Shown in pieces: positions 2,173 through 34,350 of a stretch of DNA of 64,000 bases. The position numbers and the translations under genes are program-made. The DNA comes from Acidimicrobiales bacterium (lineage in GTDB: Bacteria; Actinomycetota; Acidimicrobiia; Acidimicrobiales; SZUA-35), in the NCBI GenBank assembly GCA_020628065.1, contig JAHDFR010000005.1, positions 12,397 through 76,396 of the forward strand, given 5' to 3'. The notes under the pieces were generated by a model. That model worked only from the letters and a program-made list of their open reading frames with translations, made no database searches and had not been told where the DNA came from. How positions within the stretch are numbered: position 1 is the first letter of the stretch; each line of letters begins with the position of its first letter.

Positions 2173-3334
2173 CGTGGTTGGACCAGCCGATCCGATTGAC
2201 TCTGCTCAACGGGCCAATGTGATCGGAGCCGGACTCATCGGCGGATCAATCGCCATGGCCTTGAGAGCCCAGGGTTGGCGGGTTTCAATCTCCGACGTCA
2301 ATAGTGAGTCGGCTTCCCGGGCGGTAGAAGTGGAGGCCGCCGATGAAGTTGGCTTTGACCACGGTGCAGATCTGACGGTGATCGCCACACCGGTCAGTTC
2401 GATACCGGATGCGGCAAAGTCCGCCCTTGAGAAAACATCCGGCATGGTCACCGACGTCGGATCGACCAAAGCGGAGATCTGCGCCGCCGTTCGACACTCA
2501 CGATTCGTCGGTGGACACCCAATGGCCGGATCGGAGCAGGACGGTATCGCCGGTGCCCGAGCCGACCTTTTTGAAGGAGCGGTCTGGGTTCTCACCCCGA
2601 CCGACGAGACCGACGAGCGGATCTTCGCCCGGGTCCGTGGCGTTATCCGTCGTTTCGGCGCCGAGGTGATGACGCTGCCTCCGGCGACCCACGACGCTCT
2701 GGTCGCCCAGGTCAGTCATGTTCCCCATCTGACCGCCGCCGCCCTGATGAATCTCGCCGATGGTGGCGCGGTGGAGCACCGGGCGTTGCTGCGACTGGCG
2801 GCCGGCGGCTTCCGCGACATGACCAGAATCTCCGCAGGTCGAGCAGTCATATGGCCCGATATTTGTGTGGCCAACAGCACCGCCATTGTCGGCGCACTTG
2901 ACGACTTGGTTGATCGCCTGCAAGGTATTCGAGCCATGGTTGACCGCCAAGACAAGGTTGCGCTGTTCCAGATGCTGGATCGGGCTCGGACTGCGCGTCT
3001 CAATCTCCCCGTCGGTTATGGAACGGTTGAGCAGGTGACGGAGATCGCCGTTCCTATTCCGGATCGACCCGGCGAGTTGGCAGCCATCACCACGCTGGCG
3101 GCCGAACTGGATGTCAACATTTTGGATCTTGGAATCTCGCATTCGGGTGAAGGGCGTCAAGGCACCGTCTCTTTGGTCGTCGACGCCAACAAGTCCGAGC
3201 GGCTGATGGGAGGTCTGATGGCTCGTCGCTACAACCCGACTGTTCAGGGCTACAACAACCTCCAGGGACAACGCCCGGTTGACGGCTCCTCCGAGGTCGG
3301 CTCCGGTCAGGATCGGAACCAGACAGGTGGCTGA
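2165..3334 (+). CDS. tyrA: Prephenate dehydrogenase with C-terminal ACT-like domain
   Basis: Rossmann motif VIGAGLIGGSIA, GGHPMAGSE motif and an ACT-like tail (IAVPIPDRPGELAAITTLAAEL). I moved the start from track position 2072 to ATG 2165, which overlaps the aroH stop (ATGACTGA). Confidence 0.85.
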   Translation: MTDVVGPADPIDSAQRANVIGAGLIGGSIAMALRAQGWRVSISDVNSESASRAVEVEAADEVGFDHGADLTVIATPVSSIPDAAKSALEKTSGMVTDVGSTKAEICAAVRHSRFVGGHPMAGSEQDGIAGARADLFEGAVWVLTPTDETDERIFARVRGVIRRFGAEVMTLPPATHDALVAQVSHVPHLTAAALMNLADGGAVEHRALLRLAAGGFRDMTRISAGRAVIWPDICVANSTAIVGALDDLVDRLQGIRAMVDRQDKVALFQMLDRARTARLNLPVGYGTVEQVTEIAVPIPDRPGELAAITTLAAELDVNILDLGISHSGEGRQGTVSLVVDANKSERLMGGLMARRYNPTVQGYNNLQGQRPVDGSSEVGSGQDRNQTGG

Positions 3335-4010
3335 GGACGGGAGTCTCCTGGTGGTGGCCATCGACGGCCCGGCGGGCTCCGGAAAGTCAACTGTGGCCCG
3401 GCGGCTGGCTGACGCCCTCGGATTGCAGTACCTGGACACCGGAGCCATGTACAGGGCTGTCACTTTCGCCGTGTTGGCCCGTGGGGTCGAGCCCGACGCC
3501 GAGGAGGCGGTGGCTGAACTTGCTGAAGCCCTCAAGATCGAACTTGGGGCCGATGGCGCGGTTCTGGTCGACGGGGTCGATGCAACCACGGAGATTCGAA
3601 GCCCGGAGGTCTCCCGATGCGTCTCCGAGGTAGCCAACAATCAGCGAGTACGCAGGGAACTGGTCTCTCGCCAACGGGAGTGGACCCGTCAGCGAGGCGG
3701 GGGAGTGCTGGAGGGTCGCGATATTGGCTCGGTGGTGTATCCCGACGCAGATTTGAAGGTGTACTTGACCGCTAGCCCCGAGGTTCGGGCTCGGAGGCGG
3801 GCCTTGGAGACATCCGACGTGAGCGAAGAGTCTGTGGCCCGTGATTTGGCTCGTCGCGACGCCTACGATTCGCAGCGCGTCAACGACCCTCTTCGGCAAG
3901 CTGACGGCGCTGTCACCGTCGATACCAGCGACTTGACCATCGATCAGGTGGTCAACCGGTTGGTCGAGTTGTTAAGAGTCGCTGATCCCGGCGGCGGGCC
4001 GACGGACTGA
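3327..4010 (+). CDS. cmk: Cytidylate kinase
   Basis: P-loop AIDGPAGSGKST followed by YLDTGAMYRA. GTG 3327 gives an 8-nt overlap with the tyrA stop and a normal N-terminal length. ATG 3279 is the alternative start. Confidence 0.85.
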   Translation: MAEDGSLLVVAIDGPAGSGKSTVARRLADALGLQYLDTGAMYRAVTFAVLARGVEPDAEEAVAELAEALKIELGADGAVLVDGVDATTEIRSPEVSRCVSEVANNQRVRRELVSRQREWTRQRGGGVLEGRDIGSVVYPDADLKVYLTASPEVRARRRALETSDVSEESVARDLARRDAYDSQRVNDPLRQADGAVTVDTSDLTIDQVVNRLVELLRVADPGGGPTD

Positions 4011-29180: not shown

Positions 29181-30662
29181 ATGCAGCAAAATAACGGACG
29201 GGGGTCGGATCAACCCTCTCCTGAGGACCCCACTGCGTCGATGGAGCGGACCACCGCGGGCCGTTGGGCGGCCCCGCCTGCGTCGGTAGCGAGGTCGAAG
29301 CCATCACCCAGACCTGCTCCTGCGGCCTCTGCGCCGGAGGTCGATCCAAACCTGGCCTCTGCGCCTCCGATCGCCCAAAACCCGGCTCAACCCGGAGCGC
29401 CGTCAGCCGAGTCCAACGGGCGCTGGGTGCCGGATCCCACGGTCCAACTGACCCGTCGTGGACCCGACGATGTGCCACCGACACCGGAACCCGGAACCGA
29501 CGAGGCCGTCGAGTGGGGCGGCGATAACCATGGCGGCCCCACGAATGGCTACGAGCAGTCCTACGTCCCGAACGGGATTGACCAGGCCAACGGTTACGAA
29601 CAGATGAACGGCCCCTATGGTCTTCCAGGGGCTGAGCCGCCGAACGGAGGGGGCCATGGCGATCTGAATGGCCTACCGATGGGCTTCAACGGTGACAACG
29701 GGTACGACGACGGTCAGTACGGTGTGCCCGGCGGTTTTGACGACCCGTGGACGCCGGATACGTCACACCCATCGTCAAATCTCCATCAGTTCGATTCCGG
29801 CCAGATCAACGGCATCGGCGAGGCGCCGACCGACTTCTTCGACCGTTCGGGTTATGACGAGCGGGGCGTCATCGGTCCCGGATCGGGGGCGGCACCGTCC
29901 ACCGGCGCTTTTGATGTAGTTGATGGTCTTGGCCCTGGTGGGCCCGCTGGCCCATACGGGCCGTCAAATGGATTCCAGGACTCGACCGGACCTTCTCCAT
30001 ATGCCGCCGACGACGGCTTCGGCGATGATGGCTTCGGAGACGACGATTTCGGTGGATCGGATCCGATAGACGCCATCGACAATGCCGGCCGCAACTTTGA
30101 CGAAGAAGAGCTGGAAACCGGGATGGCGGCGCGGCGCAACGCTATCGAGTGGGCGGTAGTTCTTGTAGCCGCAGTGCTGCTCGCTTTGGTTCTGCGGGCC
30201 GTTCTGCTCCAGGCGTTCTACATCCCGTCGCCTTCGATGGAGGACACCTTGCTGGTGGATGACCGGGTCCTGGTGAACAAACTCAGCTATCGACTCAACG
30301 ACATAAGCCGTGGCGACATTGTTGTGTTTCACCGGACGGAAGCGGAGATTGCCGCCTCGGGTCCGAACGACCCTAAAGACGTCATCAAGCGGGTGATCGC
30401 CACCGAAGGGGAGCGAATCGAAATCCGCGACAACCAAGTGCTGATCGACGAACAGTTGTTGGTTGAGCCCTATCTTGACCCCAACGTGTCGATGGCCGAT
30501 TTTGGACCGCAGGTCGTACCGGAAGGCCACATCTTCGTGATGGGTGACAATCGAAACCTGTCATCCGACTCAAGAGGCGAGACCGGCCCGGTCCCTGAGG
30601 AGCGGGTGGTCGGTCGAGCGTTCTTCCTCTTCTGGCCGCTTAATCGGCTAACGGCTCTCTAG
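29181..30662 (+). CDS. lepB: Signal peptidase I with long disordered N-terminal extension
   Basis: The C-terminal third is a TM helix (AIEWAVVLVAAVLLALVL), the catalytic Ser box IPSPSMEDTL, the Lys box VIKRVIATEGE, and GDNRNLSSDSR. The first ~317 aa are P/G/D/N-rich low complexity. Confidence 0.85.
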   Translation: MQQNNGRGSDQPSPEDPTASMERTTAGRWAAPPASVARSKPSPRPAPAASAPEVDPNLASAPPIAQNPAQPGAPSAESNGRWVPDPTVQLTRRGPDDVPPTPEPGTDEAVEWGGDNHGGPTNGYEQSYVPNGIDQANGYEQMNGPYGLPGAEPPNGGGHGDLNGLPMGFNGDNGYDDGQYGVPGGFDDPWTPDTSHPSSNLHQFDSGQINGIGEAPTDFFDRSGYDERGVIGPGSGAAPSTGAFDVVDGLGPGGPAGPYGPSNGFQDSTGPSPYAADDGFGDDGFGDDDFGGSDPIDAIDNAGRNFDEEELETGMAARRNAIEWAVVLVAAVLLALVLRAVLLQAFYIPSPSMEDTLLVDDRVLVNKLSYRLNDISRGDIVVFHRTEAEIAASGPNDPKDVIKRVIATEGERIEIRDNQVLIDEQLLVEPYLDPNVSMADFGPQVVPEGHIFVMGDNRNLSSDSRGETGPVPEERVVGRAFFLFWPLNRLTAL

Positions 30663-30675
30663 CGGTTTGTCGGCC

Positions 30676-31086
30676 TTAGCTTCGGGAATCGGAGAGAATT
30701 CGCTGCGCTTCCGGACCGACCAGTAGCCCTCGCTTCGCCTGATCAACCAGAACGCTGCTGACAACGTCGATGAAGACGTCTGTCGCCCGAGCATCGGCGT
30801 TGCTTGGCGGGGCCAGAACCACCAGGAGGCTCGAGTCCTCCGCCCCTAACCGATCGTGAAGTGCTTCGTGTGCAGCATCGAGGTTGTTCCCGAACCACTC
30901 GGGAAGCTGCAGGTCTCGAGCGAAGGCAGCGAGCATGTCGTCCTTGGTCAATGCCTGGGCAGTGTCGAGGACGAGTATCGAGCGGTTGAAGCTGTTGATC
31001 AGCGCCTTGTTGGTGGCGGAGAGCCGATCTAACGGCGTCAGCCCCGGCTCACTTGCGCCGAGGAGTAGGGCCAGCAGCGGAGTCAT
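30676..31086 (-). CDS. Barstar-like ribonuclease inhibitor
   Basis: DLQLPEWFGNNLDAAHEALHD aligns with barstar ELALPEYYGENLDALWDCL. ATG 31086 overlaps the RNase stop (ATGA). GTG 31095 is the track start. Confidence 0.7.
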   Translation of the reverse strand: MTPLLALLLGASEPGLTPLDRLSATNKALINSFNRSILVLDTAQALTKDDMLAAFARDLQLPEWFGNNLDAAHEALHDRLGAEDSSLLVVLAPPSNADARATDVFIDVVSSVLVDQAKRGLLVGPEAQRILSDSRS

Positions 31087-31556
31087 GGCCGCCACCCGAT
31101 GATTTCGGAGAACGACGAGTAGTGATCGGCGGTGTAGTACAGCTCGCCATCCGATCCGGCCACGATGCGTCTGGCTCCACGATCATCACTCCCTGGGGTG
31201 ATCACAGTGAACTCCTGATAGTGGCCGTTTGGCCGGTCGGGAAGAATGCCTTCACGGTTCTGGAAAGTGAGTCCGTCCCGGTCGAAAGGGAACGGTCCAC
31301 CGGAGTCTATGAGATCCAAGGTGTCAAGGGCCTCAGCGGGCAGACCATCGGATGTGATTGAGGGCAGGTCTGAGAATTGAGTTCCGTCTGATTCGCCGAT
31401 GGAAACAACCTCGGCCGGTTGGGATTCGGACGTTGATTGCAAGGCATCGGCGCCCCACACCAGTCCGATCAGCGCCGCTAAGACAGCGACCGCCAATCCC
31501 AGACCCGACTGTCGTTTCGGCCCTGAAGTGCCACGTCGCCCGTTTGATGTCGCCAT
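31083..31556 (-). CDS. Secreted guanyl-specific ribonuclease (RNase Sa / N1-T1 microbial RNase family)
   Basis: LPAEALDTLDLIDSGGPFPFDRDGLTFQNREGILP...YQEFTVITPGSDDRGARRIV...YYTADHYSSF is collinear with RNase Sa, including the catalytic Glu, Arg and His positions. An N-terminal hydrophobic signal/anchor is present. Confidence 0.85.
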   Translation of the reverse strand: MATSNGRRGTSGPKRQSGLGLAVAVLAALIGLVWGADALQSTSESQPAEVVSIGESDGTQFSDLPSITSDGLPAEALDTLDLIDSGGPFPFDRDGLTFQNREGILPDRPNGHYQEFTVITPGSDDRGARRIVAGSDGELYYTADHYSSFSEIIGWRP

Positions 31557-31619: not shown

Positions 31620-32363
31620 CTATCGGTATTGACGCACGACGGCGACAAGACGGTGGGGGAATGCCGTCTGAACTGCGTCGATTCCGCTATCGATCACTGT
31701 GGCCATCTCCCGTTCGTACTCGCAGCCCCAGGCGTAGGCCAGGATGCCGAAGCGGTGGCAGAGGGCGATAGAGCCTGCCGACCACTCTTTGTGCGGTAGA
31801 GCCAGCACATCGATGCCCATGTCATGCATGGTGGCGACCTGACGCTCCAGGCCTCCGTCCGGCGATGATGTCGATGACCAGTACACGAGACGAGCACGGG
31901 TTCTCGTCCGGTTTCTGGACAGGGTCTCAAGATCGGTCGATGCGATCCACACGCCGTGATCGGAGGCGACGCCATTTATGTCTTCGGCTGAGGGCGAGGG
32001 CAGCCTCGCGACATCTATGTCTTCGGCTGAGGGCAGCTTGGCGACAATGGCGTCAATCGTATGTTGGCTGTCGGCGATGATCAGCAGATGAGCGAAGGCG
32101 TCAGCACCAGGAGGTGTCGGCGCGCCGGTGAAGCGGGTGACGGAGGCGTCAAGGTCGGCATCGGTCAGCTTGGCGATCCGTCGACGGCGCAGCCCGCCTC
32201 CGATCACAGCGCTCGAATGGAGGACAATGTGGCCGTCGGACGTCAACCATGCCGGCGACGCCAAGCCGTCAATGCCCACGACGGGCTGTCCGTTGGATTG
32301 CTGCCGGCCGGGCTCAGTAAAGACCAGAACCTGGTTGCGTAGGGAAGGATGGCGGGTCCGCAC
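31620..32363 (-). CDS. Glycerophosphodiester phosphodiesterase-like protein, catalytic motifs not recognisable
   Basis: GIDGLASPAWLTSDGHIVLHSSAV resembles the GDPD E-x-D-v-x-l-T-x-D-G...HD segment, and the C-terminal GIDAVQTAFPHRL resembles GvDgiiTD.P. The N-terminal HRG...ENT motif is absent. The gene contains a 39-bp in-frame imperfect duplication. Confidence 0.45.
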   Translation of the reverse strand: MRTRHPSLRNQVLVFTEPGRQQSNGQPVVGIDGLASPAWLTSDGHIVLHSSAVIGGGLRRRRIAKLTDADLDASVTRFTGAPTPPGADAFAHLLIIADSQHTIDAIVAKLPSAEDIDVARLPSPSAEDINGVASDHGVWIASTDLETLSRNRTRTRARLVYWSSTSSPDGGLERQVATMHDMGIDVLALPHKEWSAGSIALCHRFGILAYAWGCEYEREMATVIDSGIDAVQTAFPHRLVAVVRQYR

Positions 32364-32619
32364 CGCTCCATAGTGCCTGGGTCCGGCCTTGTTTCGACGT
32401 CATTCGGCTGTTTGGACCTGTGGTCACAATCGCTCGTTGTGGCCTCTAAAGCCACGTTTAGTAGTTCCTGTCACTCACCGTGGTTGACGGGTGGGCGGGT
32501 GGTCCTACCTAGCACCAAGAACCGGTGGTGAATCCTCACCGCAATCCTTAAGGGGTCCAAATCGCCTGCCGAAACAAAGGAACGACCAGTCGGAAAAGAC
32601 GGGCGAGAGGATCTGCCAA

Positions 32620-32949
32620 ATGGCGACAATTCGTGCAAGCTGCCCAGATTGTGGCGACGTTGAACTGACAACCGTCGACGTGCATGTGCGCATCTGTGAC
32701 GACAACAACCAGGGGACGTATGCTTTTCGCTGTCCCCACTGCTCAATGATGGTGGTCAAACCGGCGGAGAGTCGAACAATTGACCTTCTGGTGGCGTCCG
32801 GTGTGGCGTTTACCACCTGGCGGCTACCAGCCGAGCTTTCCGAGGTTCATATCGGGGAGCCGATCAGCCACGATGACTTGCTCGACTTCCATCACTTCGT
32901 GCAGGACGACATCCGGCTCAATGCCGCACTGGCCGAGCTGACCCAATAG
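32620..32949 (+). CDS. Zinc-ribbon protein (hypothetical)
   Basis: 109 aa from ATG 32620, with a GAGAGGA RBS-like element upstream. It has CPDC ... CPHC. I recognise no family. Confidence 0.5.
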   Translation: MATIRASCPDCGDVELTTVDVHVRICDDNNQGTYAFRCPHCSMMVVKPAESRTIDLLVASGVAFTTWRLPAELSEVHIGEPISHDDLLDFHHFVQDDIRLNAALAELTQ

Positions 32950-32955
32950 GGGCCC

Positions 32956-32989
32956 AGCGGCGGTGGTACGTCAAGATGTCGCCGCCGCT
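32956..32989 (+). terminator. Candidate stem-loop terminator after the Zn-ribbon gene
   Basis: AGCGGCGGTGGTA (32956-32968) pairs with TGTCGCCGCCGCT (32977-32989). The core is 8 perfect GC-rich bp extended by G-U/A-U pairs, with an 8-nt loop. There is no U-tract. Confidence 0.3.
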
Positions 32990-33066
32990 CGTGACAGTGC
33001 GGTGCGACCGTGCGGTGTGACAGTGCGGAGTGACAATGCGGAGTGACAGTTCGGTGTGACTATCGG
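32989..33066. repeat. Tandem array, 6 x 13 bp, consensus G(T/A)GTGACAGTGCG
   Basis: Read directly as six contiguous units: tcgtgacagtgcg, gtgcgaccgtgcg, gtgtgacagtgcg, gagtgacaatgcg, gagtgacagttcg, gtgtgactatcgg. It is intergenic and the period is not a multiple of 3. Confidence 0.85.
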
Positions 33067-33130
33067 CGGGGAGACATTTTCAGCGGCCGACACCGGACCC
33101 GACCAGCGTCCGGTCCGGTAGCCTAAAGGA

Positions 33131-33550
33131 GTGTTTTTCAACATCGGGACCGGTGAGATGATGCTGATCGCCGTTGCCCTGTTGATCGCGGTCGGCCCGG
33201 AACAGCTTCCTGGTCTTGTGCGAAAAGTTGGCACCACCGTCGGCCAGTTCAGGTCCCTGAGCGATCGTCTGCGGTCGGACTTTACCGCCGGGATGGAGGA
33301 GTTGGACCGCGCCACAGACGTGAAAGGCTGGACGGAGCTTCCCACGCCGGACTTCACCGGCCGGGACCCGGCGGCCGATTCGGCCCGCCCGCCCAACCGA
33401 CCGAACGTGCAACAGTACGACCCGGCGTCTTTGGAGGACGGTGTAGTGCCAGGCGATCCTCTCCCTCCTGCCGCGGACCCTCAGATCGATTCTTCGGTCG
33501 AAGATGCGTCGGCTTCGGGATCGGGTGATTCCGAGGAGCTTGAGTCGTGA
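33131..33550 (+). CDS. tatB: Twin-arginine translocase subunit, TatB-like (TatA/E family)
   Basis: MFFNIGTGEMMLIAVALLIAVGPEQLPGLVRKVG... matches the TatB-type N-terminus (F-x-I-G-x-x-E ... GP-x-x-LP). GTG start with an AAAGGA RBS. The C-terminus is disordered and acidic. Confidence 0.75.
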   Translation: MFFNIGTGEMMLIAVALLIAVGPEQLPGLVRKVGTTVGQFRSLSDRLRSDFTAGMEELDRATDVKGWTELPTPDFTGRDPAADSARPPNRPNVQQYDPASLEDGVVPGDPLPPAADPQIDSSVEDASASGSGDSEELES

Positions 33551-34350
33551 GGCTCCCGTTTCGGAAGAAGAAGCCTGCTCAAGGTCATCTTGGGGAGATG
33601 TCACTACTCGATCATTTGGTCGAGCTTCGGAAACGCCTCATCAAGTCGGTCATCTCCGTGGTGGTCGCCGCCATTGTCGTTTGGATTGTCCGAATTCCCC
33701 TCCTTGAGTTCATCGAGGCACCGTACTGCTCGTTCCAGCTGGCCAACTCCGACGAGGAGACCTGTCGATTCCTGCAGAGTGCACCAATGGAAGGCTTCTC
33801 CGTATCACTGACGGTGGCCGGCTACGGCGGCATCCTGCTGGCCACCCCCATCATCTTGTACCAGATTGGGCGGTTCGTTCTTCCCGGCCTGTACCCGAAC
33901 GAGAAGCGTATGCTGTTCCCGTTTATCGGGGTGTCCGTCGTTCTTCTCGTGGCCGGGATGGTGTCGGCCTTCGCCCTGTTGCCGAAGGCCCTGGACGTAC
34001 TGTTCGGCTTCGGGCCCGAGAGCTACGAGCCGCTCTTCGCCCCCAGGGAGTACATCGGTTTCTTCGTGAAGATGCTGTTCGCCTTCGGGCTGGCGGCACA
34101 GTTCCCGCTGGTTCTGATTTTCCTGCAGCTGGTTGGAATCGTTCAAACCTCGACGCTGGCCGGTAACCGTCGCATTGCCTTCGTCGGGGTCCTCATCCTC
34201 GGAGCCATCATTACTCCAACCGGCGATCCGTTCATGCTGGCGGTAATCTCCATACCCATGTACATCTCCTACGAATTGGCCATTCTGGTAGGTAGGCAGA
34301 TGACCAAACGGCGAGAAGTCAAGAGCGCCGCCGGAGGCTTCGCCACCTGA
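33547..34350 (+). CDS. tatC: Twin-arginine translocase subunit TatC
   Basis: MSLLDHLVELRKRLIKS and six hydrophobic helices. GTG 33547 overlaps the tatB stop (GTGA). ATG 33598 is an alternative start. Confidence 0.9.
   Translation: MRLPFRKKKPAQGHLGEMSLLDHLVELRKRLIKSVISVVVAAIVVWIVRIPLLEFIEAPYCSFQLANSDEETCRFLQSAPMEGFSVSLTVAGYGGILLATPIILYQIGRFVLPGLYPNEKRMLFPFIGVSVVLLVAGMVSAFALLPKALDVLFGFGPESYEPLFAPREYIGFFVKMLFAFGLAAQFPLVLIFLQLVGIVQTSTLAGNRRIAFVGVLILGAIITPTGDPFMLAVISIPMYISYELAILVGRQMTKRREVKSAAGGFAT

Follow-up and report, generated by a model that had tools for sequence, protein, structure and literature searches.

The locus and its flanking elements

The DNA analysed here, referred to as the window, is a 64-kb stretch from a member of the Acidimicrobiales. 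It carries, in order, pafA-pafB-pafC, an S26 peptidase gene, a barstar/barnase pair, a GDPD-like gene, a gene for a Zn-ribbon protein, tatB, tatC and a HelY-type helicase gene, and an array of 13-bp tandem repeats lies in the spacer between the Zn-ribbon gene and tatB (Table 1; loci and contigs retrieved for comparison are given labels of the form L001). The genes for the barnase-like ribonuclease (PF00545) and barstar (PF01337) occupy the minus strand (window 30676-31556; L001:4057-4937) and, together with the S26 signal peptidase gene, form an insertion between pafC and the tat genes; the peptidase has a long low-complexity N-terminal region. In mycobacteria, tatA is found directly 3' of pafC.

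Table 1. Features of the Zn-ribbon-tatB-tatC region, in window coordinates
Feature	Coordinates	Strand	Basis or remark
Zn-ribbon gene; conserved uncharacterised protein of 109 aa, CxxC...CxxC	32620..32949	+	ORF
GC-rich stem-loop: AGCGGCGG, 18-nt loop, CCGCCGCT	32956..32989	+	Inverted repeat, 8 nt, 100% complementary; MFE and centroid fold
Five well-preserved 13-bp units, consensus GTGACAGTGCGGT	32991..33055	.	11-13/13 identity; expanded minisatellite part, absent in L210
Terminal degenerate unit GTGACTATCGGCG	33056..33068	.	7/13 identity to consensus; only unit shared with L210
Second hairpin: ACCGGACCCGAC CAGC GTCCGGTCCGGT	33092..33119	+	Inverted repeat, 12-nt arms, 92% complementary; fold
Predicted -10 hexamer TAGCCT, followed by 6 nt and GTG 33131	33119..33124	+	Start-anchored profile
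tatB (so named in the first-pass annotation), TatA/B-family translocase gene	33131..33550	+	Pfam PF02416; NCBIfam TIGR01410 (residues 3-60 to profile 1-60)
tatC, operon partner, overlapping the tatB stop codon	33547..34350	+	PF00902, E = 1.7e-56

The Zn-ribbon protein has 1245 homologues, confined to Acidimicrobiales/Acidimicrobiia MAGs, and none of them carries a Pfam domain; comparison of the protein itself with Pfam gives sub-threshold Zn-ribbon matches only. It is strongly conserved, with two CxxC pairs and 46 invariant columns in 40 sequences. The gene is syntenic with tatB-tatC-helY across the Acidimicrobiales, and most of the 80 genome loci retrieved preserve the order of Zn-ribbon gene, tatB and tatC; the protein may be functionally linked with Tat export or with the Pup-proteasome locus.

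Two hairpins flank the array. The first follows directly 3' of the Zn-ribbon gene and constitutes the left border of the array, its 8-bp stem (32956-32963/32982-32989) adjoining the repeats, in agreement with the earlier description of an array that begins at the foot of a stem-loop. We presume that it is a terminator hairpin, albeit one without a U-tract; it was not among the intrinsic terminators called by a simple scan. A hairpin in this position is also kept in L210 (~595-625), with different pairing partners: the arms are AGCGGCGG/CCGCCGCT in the window and CCGTC/GACGG in L210. The second hairpin adjoins the predicted -10 box of tatB and, in the comparison of the window with L210, is found abutting the box only in the species of the window. 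A G>A SNP at 33118 falls in its 3' arm in L003 and L004, and many relatives, among them L029, L030, L032, L037, L065, L066 and L080, show a GC-rich hairpin just upstream of the -10 element.

The tatB start and its predicted promoter

Automatic gene calls put the start of tatB at ATG 33158, giving a protein of 130 aa. The NCBIfam TatB/TatA profiles, in contrast, align from residues 1-3 of the protein that starts at GTG 33131, and its N-terminal codons, MF(F)NIG, are conserved in 73 orthologues. An exact-sequence look-up found the ATG-33158 version and no record of the GTG-start version, because gene callers use ATG 33158. Judged from sequence, the true start is GTG 33131, and the automatic calls lie 27 nt too far downstream.

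For the promoter, a profile was built from the 60 nt before each tatB start in 73 orthologous loci (including L006-L085, L209 and L210), aligned on the start codon. It shows G at -14 (77%), T/A at -12, A at -11 (68%), C at -8 (60%), T at -7 (75%), C at -1 (66%) and a purine at +1: a conserved TAnnCT -10 box stands 6-7 nt before the tatB GTG/ATG in these Acidimicrobiales loci, and the start-anchored profile contains no Shine-Dalgarno sequence. The tatB mRNA is therefore probably leaderless, the predicted transcription start site (TSS) in the window being the G of the GTG at 33131, and the profile predicts that the tatB-tatC mRNA would be leaderless across the Acidimicrobiales. The genome-wide TSS map of Mycobacterium tuberculosis centres the -10 motif 7-12 bp upstream of the TSS, counts 22-26% of genes as leaderless, and reveals a preference for a pyrimidine at -1 and T at +2 (PMC3898074). 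The tatB loci resemble the leaderless architecture of that organism, in that they likewise combine a TANNNT -10 box with a start codon at the TSS.

Because a conserved -10 box lies 6-7 nt before the start codon in the 73 loci, the array is placed upstream of the core promoter. It spans about -63 to -140 relative to the predicted TSS near 33131, and its end at 33068 is 50 nt upstream of the predicted -10 hexamer, such that it falls outside the core promoter.

Sequence and statistics of the array

The array extends from 32991 to 33068 and reads GTGACAGTGCGGT GCGACCGTGCGGT GTGACAGTGCGGA GTGACAATGCGGA GTGACAGTTCGGT GTGACTATCGGCG, in that order. TRF describes it as a repeat of period 13 with 5.4 copies and 84% matches (32991-33060), and its score of 98 is the highest of any tandem repeat in the window; when the window was shuffled 100 times with its dinucleotides preserved, the best TRF score had a mean of 46.6 and a maximum of 65. 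Identities of the successive units to the consensus GTGACAGTGCGGT are 13, 11, 12, 11, 12 and 7 of 13 positions. The first-pass annotation had proposed six head-to-tail units of 13 bp at 32989-33066. The array as such is confirmed, and that frame merely starts 2 nt before 32991 on an identical array; the sixth copy, however, is degenerate, so that the 'six copies' are better described as five good units and one degenerate unit. The tatB GTG does lie 64 nt after 33066, as had been stated, and every core is in direct orientation, so the description of the cores as direct repeats and not a palindrome also holds. Units of this type, when arrayed, are described by the pattern GTGACNNNNCGG. At up to two mismatches, the unit matches 11 sites in the window against 9.5 expected, and five of the 11 are inside the array; elsewhere in the 64 kb, no further copies occur above chance.

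Coding capacity and structure

A single ORF crosses the array: an antisense frame of 141 aa (32971-33396) that overlaps tatB. It is this frame that lends some colour to the view that the repeat is a piece of an unannotated gene, if not simply an assembly artefact. The frame is antisense to tatB, and neither Pfam nor NCBIfam profiles match it; moreover, the gain or loss of one 13-bp unit between alleles shifts any reading frame. As regards an artefact, six independent assemblies, made from five samples, contain the same array, and its units are individually distinguishable, hence placeable by short reads. We regard this explanation as effectively refuted already and attach a negligible probability to it. 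The earlier judgement that the array is non-coding is upheld by its period, which is not a multiple of three, by the one-unit indel between alleles and by the lack of homologues of the spanning ORF.

Structure might instead reside in RNA, with the array transcribed either as a 5' leader of tatB or as a 3' UTR of the Zn-ribbon gene, and acting through RNA structure or as a sponge for a protein or sRNA. The two flanking hairpins are in keeping with such a role, and the first of these lacks a U-tract, so read-through from the Zn-ribbon gene is possible. The folding calculations point the other way: the whole intergenic RNA is no more stable than its shuffles (z = -0.26), the centroid fold of that RNA leaves the array essentially unpaired, and the array, as single-stranded DNA, folds worse than shuffles (z = +1.62). 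A search of Rfam over 32000-34000, with E values up to 10, returned nothing relevant, the array is unconserved in relatives, and a leaderless TSS at 33131 would leave no 5' leader to be structured. A role in RNA is consequently rated as extremely unlikely, and the structured 5' leader offered in the first-pass annotation is disfavoured both by the fold statistics and by a predicted start that lies downstream of the array.

Variation within the species

Exact-sequence look-ups yielded five contigs (L001, L002, L003, L004 and L213), all independent assemblies, that we group with the window as one species: their Zn-ribbon genes are 99.4-100% identical to that of the window at the nucleotide level, and longer alignments give 99.6% over 12.3 kb for L001 and 97.7% over 3.3 kb for L003. 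All six contigs carry the array (97.7-99.6% nucleotide identity). It comprises six units in the window, L001, L002 and L213, and seven in L003 and L004, which are independent assemblies from two different sequencing runs; the extra unit, GCGACCGCGCGGA, is placed before the terminal unit. Copy-number polymorphism thus does exist within the species, and with it sequence polymorphism, as the six contigs represent four haplotypes of the array. The suggestion of a slippage-type VNTR, made from a single sequence, is well served by these length alleles and haplotypes.

The variation is concentrated in the repeats. Of the 40 mismatches that separate the window from L001, three fall within the 78 bp of the array, which is ~10-fold the background rate (p = 0.002), and five of the six segregating sites in a 300-bp alignment are inside it (p = 0.006), with the 50-60 bp on each side invariant among the same-species contigs bar one SNP. 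At the same time, the six contigs show only two length alleles, and the array is never lost across up to 2.3% divergence, being present in every sampled contig of the species.

Distribution in related lineages

In the closest relatives outside the species, the array is missing. The nearest sister lineage is represented by L210, with a Zn-ribbon gene that is 89.7% identical in nucleotide sequence and 99% identical at the amino acid level. Its junction reads ...GTCAAGATGTCGACGGT|GTGACTATCGGCG|AAGAGAC..., i.e. exactly one unit between flanks that are homologous to the window on both sides, and this single unit, GTGACTATCGGCG, equals the terminal degenerate unit of the window. In the BLAST alignment, the window coordinate jumps from 32981 to 33052 across nearly adjacent bases of L210, leaving the segment 32982-33051 without a counterpart. 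A MITE-like insertion, considered on account of the flanking inverted repeat, is rejected in view of the contiguous homologous DNA with one unit in L210. In the somewhat more distant L006, L007 and L206-L209 (82-84% nucleotide identity), no array unit is found in the corresponding intergenic regions of 88-135 bp. Of these close relatives, then, L210 alone has a unit, and only one.

The terminal unit, being the only one shared with L210, is probably the ancestral seed copy. Expansion in the lineage of the window after its split from L210 would be the simplest history: a single GTGACTATCGG-like sequence would have given rise to the array via replication slippage or unequal recombination, and the array would since have decayed by point mutation, with the occasional gain or loss of a unit. 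Contraction in the L210 lineage, instead of expansion in that of the window, may have produced the same difference.

The spacer between the Zn-ribbon gene and tatB varies from 36 to ~470 bp among relatives, and TRF detects no other 13-bp arrays in 472 kb of orthologous loci. Tandem duplications unrelated to the array occur in the same spacer in L031 (84 bp x 2.2; 3407-3587), L047 (87 bp x 1.9; 3337-3506), L060 (89 bp x 2.1; 3330-3508), L048 (34 bp x 2.1; 3383-3452) and L059 (40 bp x 2.9; 3350-3477), and some of them are built from GC-rich palindromes, e.g. CGGGGGGCTGCGCCCCCGG. The spacer is a recurrent site of duplication in the Acidimicrobiales and evidently tolerates insertions. Of the other tandem repeats in the 472 kb, almost all have a period that is a multiple of three, as would be expected of coding repeats. 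Many relatives carry long tandem repeats with in-frame periods of 12, 15, 18, 27, 30 or 90 bp, in up to nine copies, a few hundred bp 3' of the tatB start (L010:3930-4040, L041:3759-3911, L042:3781-3893, L019:4050-4256, L021:3724-4015 and L026:3912-4075); these probably encode part of the acidic C-terminal tail of TatB.

Similar arrays elsewhere

The pattern GTGAC-N4-CGG-N, at 2.4 repeats, matched at least 120 loci in a metagenome-wide scan, and the matches listed collapse to 97 independent loci with GC contents of 0.30-0.79. Across these 97 loci, the five unconstrained positions of the unit are compositionally random and their similarity to the array unit is as expected from the binomial distribution (two loci with four of five matches versus 1.4 expected); furthermore, among the matches listed, none has a Zn-ribbon or tat gene beside it. 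On these three counts, we reject the notion that arrays of this pattern form a family: the 97 metagenomic loci are independent 13-bp minisatellites that fit the pattern by chance. One form, GTGAC[T/C]TGGCGGA, is arrayed in 6-35 units on metagenome contigs of 63-66% GC (L162:1650-2150, L086, L098, L119, L138, L164, L171, L184 and L196), and has no relation to the tat locus. L162 has several of these arrays, set apart by a conserved spacer of ~120 bp, giving a higher-order satellite of >2 kb, within which there is no convincing ORF.

A possible role of the array as a regulatory site

Sites of the CRP/FNR family have the form TGTGA-N6-TCACA, and a resemblance to their half-site had been noted in the first-pass annotation. 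Some array units do contain TGTGA (GGTGTGACAG), but the inverted TCACA half-site is missing: all cores are direct, and TCAC does not occur on the plus strand between 32989 and 33070. The resemblance thus does not extend to the palindrome that characterizes these sites.

Another possibility would be an iterated operator, in which the units bind a direct-repeat regulator of the OmpR/PhoB family, such as MtrA, and so control tatB. The likeness to the operators of this family (MtrA box, GTCACAgcg-like) consists in the direct repetition and the GTCAC/GTGAC core; the minus strand of two units, GTCACACCG, agrees in eight of nine positions with the MtrA box 9-mer GTCACAGCG (PMC4285127). Additionally, no haplotype departs from the GTGAC core other than in GCGAC units, and a position of -63 to -140 is where activators bind.

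Several observations count against an operator. First, the array is absent in sister species in which the tat operon and its promoter are conserved. Second, GTGAC/GTCAC is not enriched in 72 non-identical orthologous intergenic regions (11.3 kb), where 21 occurrences compare with 21.4 expected from shuffles, nor does it have a preferred position in them; the only GTSAC-type case with 13-bp spacing among the 72, a GTCGCA...GTCACA pair in L209, is a single instance and is treated as chance. Third, the window contains 17 occurrences of GTCACAGCG at up to one mismatch where 26 are expected, which puts the MtrA-box resemblance at chance level. Fourth, tandem dimers of the OmpR type are spaced at 10-11 bp, and the 13-bp period departs from this spacing, just as it differs from the period of about 11 bp in the direct-repeat operators of the family; nor is the array conserved in orthologous promoters.

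The invariance of the core also turns out to be what chance predicts. Among the 11 distinct non-terminal units of the four haplotypes, six of 13 positions are invariant (G1, G3, A4, C5, G11 and G12), whereas 9-12 random substitutions over 13 positions would leave 5.0-6.3 untouched, the probability of six or more being 0.31-0.80. Given that the invariance equals the chance prediction, the 'conserved GTGAC core' is, as far as these sequences go, without a signal of selection. Invariant GTGAC and GG in units that are ~84% identical would be compatible with weak selection on the core, although chance predicts the same pattern.

The presence of pafB and pafC 4 kb upstream suggested PafBC as a further candidate. 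Its RecA-NDp promoter pattern is TGTCRGTG-N8-TANNNT-like; with this consensus and up to one mismatch, the window contains one match (29462-29483), at chance level, and the array none. In view of the missing RecA-NDp-like motif, the link to PafBC was dropped.

Taken with the missing CRP/FNR palindrome, these results make an iterated operator quite improbable, and the first-pass suggestion to that effect fails on the absence of the array from the closest other species and on the unenriched core. Of the outcomes that the first-pass annotation had named as refuting its reading, two agree with the data, in that the array is unconserved in relatives and the predicted TSS lies downstream of 33066; a third, the lack of copy-number polymorphism, is contradicted by the alleles of six and seven units. 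It is highly unlikely, but conceivable from the sequences, that the units are a recently evolved, copy-number-variable cluster of weak response-regulator sites, with a GTGAC/GTCAC core and resembling the MtrA box on the minus strand, that would provide a new, tunable input to the leaderless tatB-tatC promoter. Were it so, the cluster would represent regulatory sites born by minisatellite expansion in one Acidimicrobiales species.

Copy number and expression

The number of units, not their sequence, could also be what matters: copy number would alter the distance or phase of upstream elements (the terminator hairpin, read-through transcription or some other upstream site) relative to the tatB promoter, resulting in heritable variation in Tat expression. 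Alleles of six and seven units are indeed seen, and the array lies within 140 nt of the predicted TSS. There is, moreover, a precedent in another actinobacterium: variation in the copy number of promoter tandem repeats in M. tuberculosis is reported to have a phenotypic effect, the repeats acting by altering promoter strength (PMC12817950). The likeness to our array is that of actinobacterial, promoter-adjacent repeats with copy number varying among close relatives; here, however, the predicted -10 box is 50 nt downstream and the units are without TANNNT.

A scan for sigma-70 promoters and intrinsic terminators found no consensus of either in the array, and TANNNT occurs nowhere in it. The 84% identity of the units would lower slippage rates, the observed length alleles number only two, and relatives function with unrelated spacers of 36-470 bp, which argues that spacing is unconstrained.

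The repeats of contingency loci, as in Neisseria and Haemophilus, are perfect units of 1-7 bp that mediate high-frequency switching, and their tracts usually separate the -35 from the -10 element or a regulator site from the promoter. Common to both is a slippage-prone repeat near a promoter that could, in principle, modulate expression via spacing; the array differs in its 13-bp units, only 84% alike, in its position outside the core promoter and in having two length alleles. We therefore consider an effect of copy number on tatB expression unlikely. Of the first-pass proposal of a VNTR that changes promoter geometry, the copy-number variation stands, and the change in geometry does not sit easily with an array that ends 50 nt upstream of the -10 box.

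Interpretation

With good confidence, we interpret the array as a lineage-specific, copy-number-variable 13-bp minisatellite (VNTR) that is most likely neutral. It would occupy a non-essential spacer, bounded by the hairpin 3' of the Zn-ribbon gene on one side and by the putatively leaderless tatB-tatC promoter on the other, and, lying outside the core promoter, would most likely be without a sequence-specific function.

As such, it has much in common with the intergenic VNTRs of bacteria, e.g. the short-unit VNTRs and the MIRU-VNTR loci used for typing in Mycobacterium and Burkholderia: short, imperfect, non-coding units are arranged head to tail, their copy number varies between strains, substitutions are denser within the array than around it, and the sister species have a single copy or none. 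It differs from MIRUs in unit length (13 bp, compared with 40-100 bp). It differs from bacterial VNTRs more generally in being confined to a single locus, with no dispersed family in the window or in the 472 kb of related loci, and in that no source other than metagenome assemblies of one uncultured Acidimicrobiales species is known for it.

The array is, on this interpretation as a neutral minisatellite, another ordinary intergenic repeat of little consequence for biology at large. Its use may go no further than strain typing in an uncultured Acidimicrobiales population, and it offers a small example of the birth of an array from a single-copy seed in an insertion-tolerant spacer. Should the array tune Tat expression after all, repeat expansion would here have created regulatory novelty, though no finding points in that direction. 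More useful than the array itself is a by-product of its analysis, namely, the probably leaderless tatB of the Acidimicrobiales and the misplacement of its start by automatic gene calls.
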